Shown: piece after piece, positions 15,001 to 18,000 of the stretch
How the letters are laid out: each line of letters begins with the position of its first letter
Numbering within the stretch: position 1 is the stretch's first letter
Assembly (NCBI GenBank): GCA_963833095.1
Contig: CAWHWQ010000002.1
Location: 64,001-128,000, forward strand
From: Vulcanimicrobiota bacterium
Lineage (GTDB): Bacteria > Vulcanimicrobiota > Vulcanimicrobiia > Vulcanimicrobiales > Vulcanimicrobiaceae
Length of the DNA: 64,000 bases
Direction of reading: 5' to 3'
Position numbers: made by a program

Positions 15001-18000
15001 TCGAAGCAAAACTTCCCGACCTCGCGCACTGGTCGTTACCGAAGCTGCGTCACTGCGTGAGCGCAGGCGAACCGCTCAATCCCGAAGTGATCGCGCGTTG
15101 GAAAGACGCGTTCGGCTTGGAGATTCTCGACGGCTACGGACAGACCGAGAATACGTTGCTGGTAGCGAACGCCCACGGCGCCGCTGTTCGCCCAGGCTCG
15201 ATGGGCAAACCGACGCCGGGGCACGACGTCACCGTCATCGACGAAGACGGCAACGCGTGCAAGACCGGCGAAACCGGAGACATCGCGCTGCGCGGCACGC
15301 CGCCCTCACTCTTTAAGGGTTACTTGAAGAATCCCGAGGAGACGGCCAAGAGCTATCGCGCCGGCTACTATCTCACCGGCGACCGGGCCTACATAGATGA
15401 AGACGGATATTTTTGGTTCGTCGGCCGCTCCGACGACGTCATTAGCTCGGGCGCTTATCGCATCGGCCCATTCGAAGTGGAGAGCGCGCTGCTCGAACAT
15501 GCTGCTGTCGCCGAGTCGGCCGTGGTGGGGAGCCCGGATCCGGATCGCGGCAACATCGTCAAAGCCTTTGTCGTGCTGCGCCCGGGACACGAAGGCAGCG
15601 ATGCGCTCGTGCGGGAGCTGCAAGAGCACTGCAAGCGCGTCACCGCGCCCTACAAATACCCGCGTGAGATCGAATTCGTCAGCGAGTTGCCGAAGACGCG
15701 CTCGGGAAAGATCCGGCGCGTCGAATTGCGCCAACTCGAACTCGAGCGTAAAGGCGCCACGCGGTCGAGCGGCTATTTATGACCGCTTCTGGGTGAAGAG
15801 CAAGGCGAGCAGGGCTCACCTGCCCTTGACCCAGGCCCCGGACCGTGGTATTCTGCGCAAGCCGAAGAAGCGCTTGGGGTACGCCCCGAGCCTCACCGGA
15901 TGCCTGCGGGCGATCCGGTTACTACTCGAGGGGCCGTCGGTAGGTTCCGCGCGTGGGGTTGCTTCGGCAACGCCATTTTTTGTTCTCTCTTGAAAGGGAA
16001 AACGCCATAGCTCGACCGCTGCGAGTCAACGAGCAAATCCGTATTCGACAGGTCCGGGTGATCGACGAAAACGGCGAACAGCTCGGCATATTGCCGACCG
16101 AGGACGCGCTTTCGCGTGCCCGAGGCGCGGGCCTGGATCTGATCGAGATCTCGCCCAACGCACAGCCGCCGGTGGTAAAAATCGGTGACTACGGCCGGTT
16201 GAAATACGAGCAGTCGAAAAAAGATAAAGACGCGCGCAAGAAACAACGCAACTTCGAGCTCCGCGAGGTCAAGTTGCGCCCGAAGATCGAGACCCACGAC
16301 TACGAGACGAAGGCGCGCATGACCGAGCGGCTTCTGCTCGACGGAAGCAAGATCAAGGTCACGATCATGTTTCGCGGACGCGAAATTACCTATACGGCGT
16401 TTGGCCGGCGGTTACTCGACCGCATGGCTGAAGACATGGCGCCGCTTGCCACCATCGAGCGCGAACCGCGGCTCGAAGGAAAAAATATGTTTATGATCCT
16501 GGCGCCACGCGTAACGCCGACCGGTCCGCCAAAGTTCTCCTTGCACAAAGACAAGGACGACAAGGACCATAAGGACGGTACGCGCGCTCAAGATCACAAG
16601 GACGCGCCCGTCGTCGACAAAGAACACGACGAGCACGACGAACACGACGAACACGTCGAGGAACACGAAGAACCAGCGAAGGAGCCTACCCGTGCCTAAG
16701 ATTCGTACCCATCGTGGTACCGCAAAACGCGTCAAAGTGACGGCGACCGGAAAGGTCATTCACCGTCATCAGTTCAGCGGTTGCGGCCACATTCTCAGCA
16801 AGAAGACGCGCAAACGCAAGCGCAACTTCCGCAAGGATCAACCGACGTTCAAGGGCGATTTGAAGCGCTTGGCGCCGACGATCCCGTATTTGGTTTAAGG
16901 AGGGCTCGAACACATGGCACGCGTTAAACGTGGCGTAGCTGGGCTCAAGCATCGCCGTAAAGTCATGAAGCTCGTCAAGGGCTTCCGCGCCTCCCGCCGT
17001 CGCAACTATCGCGTCGCGAACGAAGCGCTGCTCAAGTCGCTGGCGTACGCATTCCGTGATCGCCGCGTCCGCAAGCGCGACTTTCGCTCGCTCTGGATCA
17101 GCCGCATCAACGCGGCCGTCCGCCGCGAAGGCATGACCTACTCCGTCTTCATGAACGGTTTGAAGAAGTCGGGCGTGACGCTCAATCGCAAGGCGATTTC
17201 GGAACTAGCGATCAACGATCAGCAGGCCTTTGGCTCGCTGCTCAAGATCGCAAAGCAAGCCGTCAGCAAATAGCCCTCATCGCTTTCGAACCCAATTGCG
17301 TGGGCCGGGACCTTCCCGGCCCATTTTGTCATTCGGATTAGCAAAGCGGCAGGCGGGGAGCGAGAGGCAGCCGCAGCCGATGCACGCGGTGAGGCCTTTG
17401 CGCAACCGCTTGAGCTCGGCGATGCGCTCGTCGATGCGGGTCATCCAGAGATGCGAAAGCTTCGACCAATCGGAGGGATCCGGAGCGCGCCGGTCGGGAA
17501 GCTTTGCAAGTTCGTCGCCAATCTCGTCGAGCGAAAAACCAACGCGTTGCGCAAAGACGATGAACGCGACCTGGCGCAGGGTCCAGCGCGCATAGAGCCG
17601 ATGTCCGGATGGCGCGCGCCGGGATGCAATCAAGCCGCGATCTTCGTAGAAGCGCAACGCCGACGCGGCGACGCCGCTGCGCTGGGAAACGTCGCTGATG
17701 CTGAGCAGTTCATCCACGGCCCAATCCTAGCGCACGCGCGCCTTGACTTCAAGTGCACTTTAACTTGTACCATGCCTCCATGATACTTGTCACAGGAGCG
17801 ACCGGAACCGTCGGGAACCAGGTCGCGCGCATCCTTGCAAACACTGGAGAGACGGTGCATGCTCTCACGCGTAATCCCGAACGCACATCCTTCCCGAGCG
17901 GCGTTAGCGTCGTTCGCGGCGACTTCACCGATCCGTCGACACTCGAAGCCGCGGCACGTGACGCCGACGCGATCTTTCTCATGCTGCCTGCGATGGACAC

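Follow-up and report, generated by a model that had tools for sequence, protein, structure and literature searches.

What controls the infC-rpmI-rplT operon in a bacterial family where a folded RNA precedes infC and no Rfam model recognises it? And does that RNA represent a new kind of regulation? We addressed these questions in a window of 64,000 nt, the whole stretch of DNA analysed (G000:C2:64001-128000; its contig offset is 64000 and not the 32000 given earlier). We conclude that this is no new kind of regulation but the known L20 type of attenuator, rewired. The leader is very probably an L20-type attenuator missed by Rfam models, and we consider it likely to be a GC-rich, diverged descendant of the L20 leader RF00558, predicted to act as an L20-responsive transcription attenuator of infC-rpmI-rplT. 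The operon and its signals are arranged as follows.

15826..15854, + strand: sigma-70-type promoter, TTGACC, 17-nt spacer, TG-n-TATTCT (promoter search)
15860-15981 (folded span 15860-15987), + strand: leader, ~125 nt, ending in a hairpin and U-run
15993..16009, + strand: Shine-Dalgarno sequence AAAGGGA and infC AUA start codon (16007), read from the sequence
16007..17273, + strand: regulated operon infC-rpmI-rplT
16007-16699, + strand: infC (Pfam IF3_N/IF3_C, far above cut-offs)
16692-16898, + strand: rpmI (Pfam Ribosomal_L35p, far above cut-off), overlapping infC by 8 nt
16914-17273, + strand: rplT (Pfam Ribosomal_L20, far above cut-off)
17300-17324: terminator-like site downstream of rplT

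The promoter is the only promoter-like site in 15000-17600, and TTGAC and TAT..T are visible upstream of the leaders of relatives too. From its position, transcription is predicted to start at about 15860. RNA-library contigs from relatives span the leader into infC in 4/4 runs, although their starts and ends are not resolvable and DNA carry-over is possible; no contig of these four runs covers 15700-15835, a gap which is not usable as start-site evidence. The infC start lies 25 nt downstream of the leader end. Support for the AUA codon comes from the Pfam IF3_N domain, which begins at residue 7 of the protein translated from 16007, and from an ATA at the homologous position in 28 of 30 extracts, the remaining two being too short to reach it. 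A leader peptide was considered and rejected, as 15860-15990 holds no short reading frame with both start codon and Shine-Dalgarno sequence; only two frames cross the leader, one that opens at a GTG within the terminator and shares the frame of infC, the other a 198-aa frame from the upstream gene.

Within the leader, the following elements were distinguished.

15861..15867, + strand: 5' GCCGAAG, which supplies the 5' strand for the predicted antiterminator P1; invariant
15867..15894, + strand: helix 1 (P2); compensatory changes in 5/8 pairs
15895..15919, + strand: helix 2 (P3), ACCGGAUGCC-loop-GGC(G)AUCCGGU; 10 bp with one bulged nucleotide
15922..15925, + strand: linker CUAC, which is CUUCAC in most relatives
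15927..15951, + strand: stem 4 (P4), GGGGCC/GGUUCC with 7-nt loop GUCGGUA; compensatory changes in 6/6 pairs
15955..15981, + strand: intrinsic terminator GG(G)GUUGC-UUCG-GCAAC(G)CC, followed by A and UUUUUU; hairpin 15955-15974, core GUUGC-UUCG-GCAAC 15958-15971
15976-15981, + strand: U-run of the terminator

The preliminary description had proposed a folded RNA before infC, a sigma-70-type promoter and a promoter-proximal, structured leader of infC-rpmI-rplT closed by an intrinsic terminator. Each of these claims holds, and everything it described is present in the sequence where it was placed.

Conservation of the leader is pronounced within the family of the window. Among the family's 120 other genomes, 110 matched the region by blastn (101 of 111 without nine genomes flagged as unpublished), and a pattern scan recovered the leader in at least 118 species-level genomes. 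A covariance model built only from leaders of this family, R1, matched 71/71 of its genomes and the single genome of a sister family (G164, 30.5 bits), and none of 78 genomes in the remaining phylum sample. Two further matches of the leader in genomes already holding one are explained away: that in G004 (24.1 bits) falls within the reading frame of a histidine kinase and that in G016 is a duplicate at a contig end. The leader is thus single-copy and always found with infC.

Covariation supports the fold as well. RNAalifold applied to 29 leaders gave 31 pairs, 12 of them with compensatory changes. Across 85 distinct leaders (alignment A2), such changes occur in 22 of the 31 pairs, 96.3% of cells are paired and none of 500 shuffles equalled this result, counts which lean towards structure since A2 was fitted to the model. 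The terminator stem contributes compensatory changes in 5/7 pairs, with 98.1% of cells paired, and a U-run (at least four U near the end) follows in 83/85 leaders. Stem 4 is present in 78/85 leaders by script count, and its loop, with CGG at 15938-15940 in the window, holds CGG[CU] in 76 of these 78. The six leaders of one genus, g25 (L063-L068), have no stem 4.

GCCGAAG and CUCACCG each occur in 85/85 distinct leaders. Two adenosines directly 5' of helix 1, A6 and A7 (15865-15866), are invariant in all 85 and unpaired in the consensus terminator-form fold. Helix 1 begins with the pairs G8-C35, A10-U34 and G11-C33, with N9 bulged, and these pairs are invariant and unbroken in 85/85, while the helix's upper portion and its loop vary in sequence and length. 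Helix 2 adjoins helix 1 directly, beginning at the nucleotide after C35, and its shape of seven base pairs, one bulge and three base pairs is nearly invariant. Its cells are 99.6% paired, with compensatory changes in 6/10 pairs in a few divergent members (L069, L070 and L011), and its loop is variable.

This architecture resembles a known one. According to passages of PMC1865079 (Choonee et al. 2007), the L20 site consists of two adjacent helices with two unpaired adenosines directly 5' of the upper helix, an arrangement that imitates the junction of H40 and H41 in 23S rRNA; in Bacillus, L20 on binding blocks a long-range antiterminator and thereby favours the terminator. Excerpts of PMC3849166 (Deiorio-Haggar et al. 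2013) describe a conserved AA pair and, in over 75% of species, a fourth stem that precedes the terminator; they place the L20 leader mostly in Firmicutes, a few cases being from Thermotogae and Actinobacteria. The leader shares with RF00558 its place in the 5' UTR of infC-rpmI-rplT and a conserved unpaired A pair 5' of helix 1. At the level of letters, the RF00558 consensus reads AAG-a-AGAAGC-ACCC-GCUUCU-C-gCC; the family's leaders read AAG-N-AG[helix]CU-C-ACC, invariant in 85/85, and columns G8, A10, G11, C33, U34, C35, A36, C37 and C38 match that consensus. Predicted function is shared too, namely a long-range antiterminator involving the operator, read-through as the default and termination as the expected effect of L20.

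Rfam returned nothing relevant at E<=10 on either 15600-17400 or the leader region 15850-15995 (146 nt). A chrB-b match (21.7 bits, E = 0.007, cut-off 36.5) and a SAH riboswitch match (14.6 bits, E = 0.98) lie on the opposite strand, and a 23-nt piece of sobemo_FSE falls on helix 2 (11.4 bits versus a cut-off of 55); all three look like chance. RF00558 itself, with a gathering threshold of 58.7 bits, gave no match to the window at E<=10 and none in two other genomes of the same genus. One genome of the family, G087, has a match (29.6 bits), which lies on contig C57, while its leader is on C79.

Elsewhere in the phylum RF00558-type leaders stand directly before infC. The model matched 43/79 genomes of other families in the phylum sample, two above 58.7 bits and many at 50-58 bits. 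Six of these matches were fetched and lie 27-79 nt before infC, with rpmI and/or rplT following in five (L106 is too short to reach them). The leader of G164 is, on the evidence of its sequence, an intermediate form that both R1 and RF00558 align. RF00558 is its best Rfam match (19.1 bits, E = 0.52), in an alignment where the columns of the operator correspond one by one. Conversely, an unfiltered search with R1 of 15.4 kb placed its top match on the RF00558 site in 5/6 loci, at 20.8, 16.1, 14.7, 13.2 and 12.7 bits (E 4.7e-5 to 0.011). As the best unrelated match of R1 in the 64-kb window reached 14.2 bits, only two of these five scores are clearly above background and three fall within its range, so that the reciprocal support comes from the coincidence of positions rather than from the scores. 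Given the silence of RF00558 on the window, the case for homology draws on the core motif, the architecture and the intermediate, together with reciprocal scores that are modest.

The main competing explanation accepts an attenuator that binds L20 and supposes that it arose apart from RF00558, both RNAs having copied 23S H40/H41. In its favour, beyond that silence, the leader departs from the classical one in its helix 1 loop, in the sequence of helix 2, in the 5' GCCG and in how the antiterminator is wired; moreover, a neighbouring family, f3, has yet another architecture before infC, which shows turnover of infC leaders in the class. As to differences in detail, RF00558 has a helix 2 of three base pairs, an internal loop and five base pairs, whereas that of the leader has ten base pairs and one bulge; the leader is 57-70% GC, against 33-46% for classical leaders in the same phylum. 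The helix 1 loop, a conserved antiterminator strand in Bacillus, is not conserved in the leader, its sequence and length both varying, and the predicted antiterminator instead employs the 5' end itself, the linker and the terminator loop. The invariant helix 2, stem 4 loop CGG and 5' GCCG extension set the leader apart from the classical type; in the published L20 leaders, as far as excerpts of PMC3849166 describe them, the fourth stem is unconserved in sequence. Against independent origin, the shared AAG-N-AG...CUC-(A/g)CC exceeds what 23S rRNA dictates, since the latter offers CC-GAA-GCU without the CUC-ACC junction. The order of the five elements (AA, helix 1, helix 2, fourth stem, terminator) is identical to that of the L20-interacting RNA as given in passages of PMC3849166. 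The G164 leader joins a classical helix 1 (AGAAGC-CCC-GCUUCU) to the 5' GGCCG and helix 2 of the window's family, and the two models meet at identical coordinates. We therefore regard convergence as unlikely. Relatedness to RF00558 also revises two points of the preliminary description. Its attenuator-type leader, undetected by any Rfam model, stands, while its statement that there is no Rfam counterpart does not, as RF00558 has the same junction signature, element order and operon; nor is the idea of a mere functional analogue supported, given that its operator core matches that of RF00558 and that the intermediate and the reciprocal matches point to relatedness. Among the literature matches listed, with subscription journals outside the scope, no work joined the L20 leader and Eremiobacterota.

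The same-genus 23S rRNA reads ..AACC-GAA-GCUUUGG opposite AGC-UAA-GGU at the H40/H41 junction, where its ACCGAAG agrees with the leader's GCCGAAG in 6/7 letters. The idea that the leader copies a longer H41-H42 stretch was dropped, as blastn-short found only 7-9-nt words at E>=1.3; the resemblance is confined to CCGAAG and the junction geometry. Relative to 23S rRNA, the topology of the leader is permuted ("open", as in Bacillus): its upper helix is a hairpin and its lower helix a separate, adjacent hairpin rather than a continuation of both strands, and it lacks the UAA strand which in 23S rRNA lies opposite GAA.

Two other systems offer partial parallels. The E. coli L20 operator (Guillier et al. 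2002, as related in parts of PMC1865079 and PMC3849166) shares the effector protein and the principle of mimicry, but it is translational, acts on rpmI, lies between infC and rpmI and is formed by a pseudoknot and an irregular stem, whereas the leader of the window is terminator-based and precedes infC. The 8-nt overlap of infC and rpmI leaves no room for an operator of the E. coli type between them. Mpr8 of the high-GC mycobacteria, which according to excerpts of DiChiara et al. 2010 (PMC2896511) is co-transcribed with infC and assigned to the L20 leader family, is likened to our leader by description only; Rfam recognises Mpr8 and not the leader of the window.

L20 is a binding partner that we infer, and another effector may be imagined (IF3, L35 or a small molecule such as a nucleotide alarmone), the likeness to an L20 operator being incidental. 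The published L20 footprint does not explain the invariant helix 2 and stem 4 CGG, which could thus form a second ligand site. Nevertheless, we judge this quite improbable: the invariant positions coincide with the junction that L20 contacts in the Bacillus leader (passages of PMC1865079), the operon encodes L20, the AUA start codon already offers IF3 a plausible point of control, and no riboswitch family matched the leader's own strand at E<=10, the SAH match being the only riboswitch hit.

With L20 as the predicted effector, it remains to ask how its binding might be converted into termination. The 5' GCCGAAG (15861-15867) is complementary to CUUCGGC of the terminator (15962-15968), and the alternative pairing of these segments that had been claimed is indeed predicted, from energies and conservation. 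The minimum free energy fold of 15860-15987 (-62.3 kcal/mol, z = -3.19, 2/200 shuffles as good) is a four-way junction closed by it. At least 6/7 nt of GCCGAAG are paired with the terminator region in the minimum free energy folds of 70/85 leaders, and the pairing is not used in the other 15; forcing the first 8 nt to be unpaired yields the terminator fold and costs 4.7 kcal/mol on average. The linker can pair with GUGG(GG) at 15953-15956, lengthening stem 4 in the antiterminator form; here 88.3% of cells are paired and columns 111/178 are double-changed in nine leaders. A pairing of GAAG with a linker CUUC was rejected because CUUC is absent from the window's own genus.

The 7-bp antiterminator core shows zero compensatory changes in the 85-leader alignment because its 5' strand never varies. 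The A6 pair is mismatched in 29 of the 81 leaders with letters at both columns, mainly in the UCCG-loop genus g71, and where the terminator loop changes, the 5' end never changes to match. An argument for the core from greater conservation of the terminator loop relative to that of helix 2 was set aside, the difference being only modest (13 versus 19 loop types, with U at the first loop position in 78/81 leaders). It is highly improbable that there is no switch at all, the leader being a constitutive 5' element (an mRNA-stabilising fold, a partial terminator with fixed read-through or a separate ~120-nt small RNA) whose two conserved, GC-rich motifs happen to be complementary as a by-product: the missing covariation, the frequent A-C mismatch and the stability of UUCG and UCCG tetraloops closed by C-G, enough to explain CUUCGG, speak for it, but the 5' GCCG is invariant in 85/85 though roleless in the terminator-form fold, genus g51 has rebuilt its terminator apex and yet pairs 6-7/7 nt of GCCGAAG in the minimum free energy folds of 3/4 leaders (L077, L081 and L088, not L079), and the design parallels the Bacillus switch, experimentally proven in the account excerpted from PMC1865079.

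An L20-responsive switch may, then, be pictured as follows. By default, the nascent RNA would form the closed four-way junction, in which the terminator apex (G)CUUCGGC is paired to GCCGAAG(NAG), and GUGGGG to the linker CUUCAC; the terminator would thereby be blocked and RNA polymerase would proceed into infC. Free L20 in excess of its 23S rRNA site would bind the two unpaired adenosines and the junction between helix 1 and helix 2, a putative mimic of the H40/H41 junction. Binding would keep A6, A7, G8, A10 and G11 in the operator fold, leaving only four base pairs (GCCG/CGGC) for the antiterminator, so that the terminator would form and transcription stop at the U-run. A further layer of control is probably exerted by IF3 itself via the AUA with which infC begins; the AUU start codon of E. 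coli is the basis for this step.

The 5' GCCG is specific to the window's family and its sister family, and the invariant, family-specific parts may be accounted for by a third state with no Bacillus equivalent, a possibility that we advance with considerable doubt. When L20 is bound (OFF), the 5' GCCG would pair with CGG(Y) of the stem 4 loop. The resulting pseudoknot would put a helix directly 5' of the two unpaired adenosines and so rebuild the helix-GAA-helix geometry of 23S H40/H41 (23S: GGU/ACC-GAA-H40), and the terminator apex (ON) would compete with the stem 4 loop (OFF) for GCCG. If this is true then, together with the unpermuted design of f3, the class would hold three L20 sensors of common ancestry, each wired in its own way, as a natural series.

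Recognising this leader as an L20 leader fixes an annotation gap throughout one Eremiobacterota/Vulcanimicrobiota family to which the public model is blind. It also indicates that a ribosomal protein leader can preserve the core that binds the protein and yet have its expression platform rewired; in this case the strand used for antitermination has left the helix 1 loop and moved to the 5' end. The 85 natural variants, in turn, mark the operator positions that L20 needs.

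The preliminary description placed a sigma-70-type promoter, a structured leader of ~125 nt and an intrinsic terminator before the IF3 gene, and all three were found at 15826-15981. Window coordinates correspond to G000:C2:64001-128000 in the genome under study, so that the offset is 64000 and not 32000, as an earlier note had it.

Features of the leader and its operon (window positions unless marked; leader position 1 is window 15860)
15826-15854, plus strand: sigma-70-like promoter, TTGACC, 17-nt spacer, TG-n-TATTCT; the sole promoter-like site within 15000-17600
leader positions 2-8, plus strand: GCCGAAG, unvarying in 85/85 distinct leaders
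leader positions 8-35, plus strand: helix 1 (P2); G8-C35, A10-U34 and G11-C33 always paired, N9 bulged
leader positions 36-60, plus strand: helix 2 (P3), ACCGGAUGCC-loop-GGC(G)AUCCGGU, near-invariant, adjoining helix 1 without a gap
15955-15974, plus strand: terminator hairpin, GG(G)GUUGC-UUCG-GCAAC(G)CC, ~125 nt past the predicted start
15976-15981, plus strand: terminator U-run, an A and then six U after the hairpin
16007 (16007-16009), plus strand: AUA start codon of infC, 25 nt past the U-run, with an AAAGGGA Shine-Dalgarno sequence in front
17300-17324: terminator-like site at the operon end

An RNA initiated at the predicted start, near 15860, would open A-GCCGAAG. The Pfam domain IF3_N starts at residue 7 of the protein translated from the AUA, and ATA occupies the homologous infC start in 28 of 30 extracts from relatives, the remaining two ending short of the site. 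IF3 regulates its own synthesis through a non-canonical start codon in E. coli, and the AUA start is compatible with similar autoregulation here. Downstream, rpmI overlaps the infC end by 8 nt and rplT begins 16 nt past rpmI; upstream lies an AMP-binding acyl-CoA synthetase gene on the same strand. Convergent with the operon is a gene for a MerR-family regulator (17277-17717, minus strand); it and rplT have the terminator-like hairpin at 17300-17324 in common. IF3 itself carries an acidic, His- and Lys-rich tail of ~60 residues past the IF3_C domain (16510-16699); its Pfam match stops at residue 167 of 230, and in other families the protein match stopped at residues 169-204. Small parts of the stretch are present in six metatranscriptome runs. 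Each of the four compared at ≥85% likeness contains one relative's contig running from inside the leader (15872-15907) through the terminator into infC (16077-16442). These contigs are compatible with co-transcription of leader and infC, while being of a kind that cannot reveal starts, ends or termination and may reflect DNA carry-over.

The claim that the region is conserved at the DNA level and contains covarying hairpins was borne out. A blastn query of 15826-16030 found matches in 110/120 other genomes of the family, or 101/111 once nine genomes flagged unpublished are set aside. A covariance model, R1, was built from 29 published leaders (alignment A1). Run on 151 genomes sampled from the phylum, it matched 71/71 genomes of the present family and the single genome (1/1) of a sister family, f2, in the same order, and 0/78 genomes of the other 19 families. 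A pattern scan for helix 2 recovered at least 118 species-level genomes; those among the matches listed are mostly labelled Vulcanimicrobiota, Eremiobacteraeota or Baltobacteraceae, with a few bearing other labels.

The leader folds beyond chance expectation. Its 128-nt stretch reaches -62.3 kcal/mol (z = -3.19; 2 of 200 shuffles as stable). Aligning 99 R1 matches gave 85 distinct leaders (alignment A2), in whose consensus fold 96.3% of cells are paired and 22/31 pairs show changes on both sides. None of 500 shuffles equalled the real alignment on any of five measures, and sliding the partners by 1-3 columns lowered pairing to 33-50%. A2 was fitted to R1 and is hence biased towards structure; an independent MAFFT/RNAalifold treatment of the 29 leaders returned the same four helices, with 12/31 pairs compensatory.

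From 5' to 3' the elements are GCCGAAG, helix 1, helix 2, a linker, stem 4 and the terminator. The upper part of helix 1 is freely variable in sequence and length. The pairing of helix 2 is proven by a few divergent leaders (L069, L070 and L011), in each of which at least three pairs are altered together. The linker reads UACUAC in the window and CUUCAC in most leaders. Stem 4 (P4) covaries at 6/6 pairs and keeps CGG(Y) in its 7-nt loop in 76 of the 78 leaders possessing it; leaders of genus g25 are entirely without it.

The preliminary description also held that the leader has no Rfam counterpart. Literally this stands, no relevant match having appeared at E≤10 to the leader region in either a 1.8-kb or a 146-nt search. 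A minus-strand match to chrB-b at 15867-15918, the reverse complement of helices 1 and 2 (21.7 bits against a cut-off of 36.5; E = 0.007, 146-nt search), was judged a chance similarity of GC-rich hairpins. In substance the claim is not supported, as the leader is related to RF00558, the Rfam model of the Bacillus L20 leader. RF00558 matched 43/79 genomes from the phylum's other families, two of them above its 58.7-bit cut-off and many at 50-58 bits, and 1/71 genomes of the present family, where the sole match, in G087, lies on another contig (C57) than that genome's leader (C79). All six top-scoring matches are located upstream of infC, at distances of 27-79 nt, and five are followed by rpmI and/or rplT; the sixth locus, L106, ends before these genes could be reached. 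Their alignments show the RF00558 consensus, AAG-a-AGAAGC-ACCC-GCUUCU-C-gCC..., followed by helix 2, a spacer and the terminator. In the present family the invariant columns, A6 A7 G8 N A10 G11, a helix, and C33 U34 C35 A36 C37 C38, are this same junction, which identifies the operator. The L20-interacting RNA, as characterized in an excerpt of PMC3849166, is closely fitted by the present leader.

A leader from the sister family (genome G164; L070:77-192, identical to L109) combines a classical helix 1 (AGAAGC-CCC-GCUUCU) with the present family's 5' GGCCG and with that family's helix 2 in a covarying form. It scores 30.5 bits with R1 and 19.1 bits with RF00558 (E = 0.52, its best Rfam match), the operator aligning column for column, and is an intermediate linking classical and present-family leaders. 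This leader has no U-run after its last hairpins, and infC starts there with ATC. Reciprocally, R1, built from the present family only, was run unfiltered on 15.4 kb covering the six loci with classical leaders. Its top match lay at the exact RF00558 coordinates in five of them (20.8, 16.1, 14.7, 13.2 and 12.7 bits), and in the remaining locus the RF00558 site came second (6.3 bits). As the top unrelated match across the 64-kb window reached 14.2 bits, just two of these scores are clearly above background, and the argument rests on positional coincidence. We conclude that the leader most probably belongs to the L20-leader lineage and has diverged within it. GC content is 57-70% in the present leaders versus 33-46% in classical ones, and the Firmicutes-trained model misses them because base composition differs and conserved parts have shifted.

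The Bacillus operator, according to excerpts of PMC1865079, mimics the H40/H41 junction of 23S rRNA. In same-genus 23S rRNA this junction reads AGC-UAA-GGU opposite AACC-GAA-GCUUUGG, and GCCGAAG shares 6/7 letters with its ACCGAAG stretch. No 23S gene was found in the window's own assembly (80.7% complete). The same-genus genes, L031 (G108:C1:2530652-2534347) and L032 (G063:C4:42982-47159), are 3696 and 4178 nt long where the model has 2925 positions, which implies large insertions (an intervening sequence or intron).

How the leader may work was approached by folding each of the 85 leaders as far as the U-run. PMC1865079 describes a long-range antiterminator as the Bacillus default, with L20 trapping the operator, which then acts as an anti-antiterminator, so that the terminator forms. 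The proposed switch between the 5' end and the terminator is predicted by minimum free energy in 70/85 leaders, which pair at least six of the seven GCCGAAG nucleotides with the terminator apex, (G)CUUCGGC. This pairing often takes in N9-A10-G11 as well, and GUGGGG is paired with the linker CUUCAC; in the folding, both together take up the terminator's entire 5' arm and loop and close a four-way junction. If the first eight nucleotides are kept unpaired, the terminator fold results, costing 4.7 kcal/mol on average. Given this cost and the prevalence of the antiterminator-type fold, read-through is the predicted default: the two pairings would block the terminator and transcription would proceed into infC. 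L20 on the operator would fix A6, A7, G8, A10 and G11, leaving the antiterminator (P1) with GCCG/CGGC only, and the balance should tip towards termination. The analysis demonstrates the fold and the operator's identity; the antiterminator and the L20 role are inferred.

Compensatory support for the 7-bp core of this switch was lacking, since its 5' strand is invariant, and the variation on its 3' side is uncompensated. A6 faces C in genus g71, with its UCCG loop, and is unpaired in 29 of the 81 leaders in which neither column of that pair is gapped. Changes on both sides give limited support (four leaders each at the N9 and A10 pairs, nine at one linker pair), the G10-C cases being four leaders of genus g51. 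The terminator apex is rebuilt in g51, yet three of its four leaders still pair 6-7 of the seven GCCGAAG nucleotides at minimum free energy, which counts in favour of the switch. A further, rather unlikely proposal is an OFF-state pseudoknot in which the stem 4 loop CGG(Y), complementary to the invariant 5' GCCG, pairs with it, placing a helix directly 5' of the two A residues. If true, the full helix-GAA-helix geometry of H40/H41 would be rebuilt, and in the ON state the terminator apex would compete for these same four nucleotides; neither partner varies, and so the alignment neither supports nor refutes it.

Family f3, in the same class, was matched in 0/9 genomes by R1 and in 0/9 by RF00558. 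A different conserved promoter-leader-terminator precedes infC there (four sequences compared, two compensatory pairs), with no Rfam match at E≤1.

Leaders of family f3
L110:1298-1415, plus strand: f3 leader
L111:2079-2198, minus strand: f3 leader
L112:1302-1422, plus strand: f3 leader
L113:2063-2194, minus strand: f3 leader

An ACCGG...CCGGU hairpin is enclosed by an outer helix, CCUUCG/CGAAGG, with an unpaired A run immediately 5' of the CGAAGG strand, and a 5' CUACCC is complementary to GGGUAG adjoining the terminator. In these four genomes the topology, that of the natural, unpermuted junction, resembles an unpermuted H40/H41-type L20 site.

RF00558 is the closest known system, sharing operon, operator core, element order and logic. 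The present leader differs in its variable helix 1, invariant helix 2, conserved stem 4 loop and invariant 5' GCCG, and in a predicted relocation of the antiterminator strand to the 5' end; the helix 1 loop, which is the classical antiterminator strand, is not conserved, so the wiring has changed. An L20 leader was previously reported in a high-GC bacterium, as Mpr8 of mycobacteria (PMC2896511, in excerpt), and no literature joining the L20-leader term with Eremiobacterota appeared among the matches listed. The leader involves no new mechanism; its use lies in annotation and in the study of how r-protein leaders evolve.
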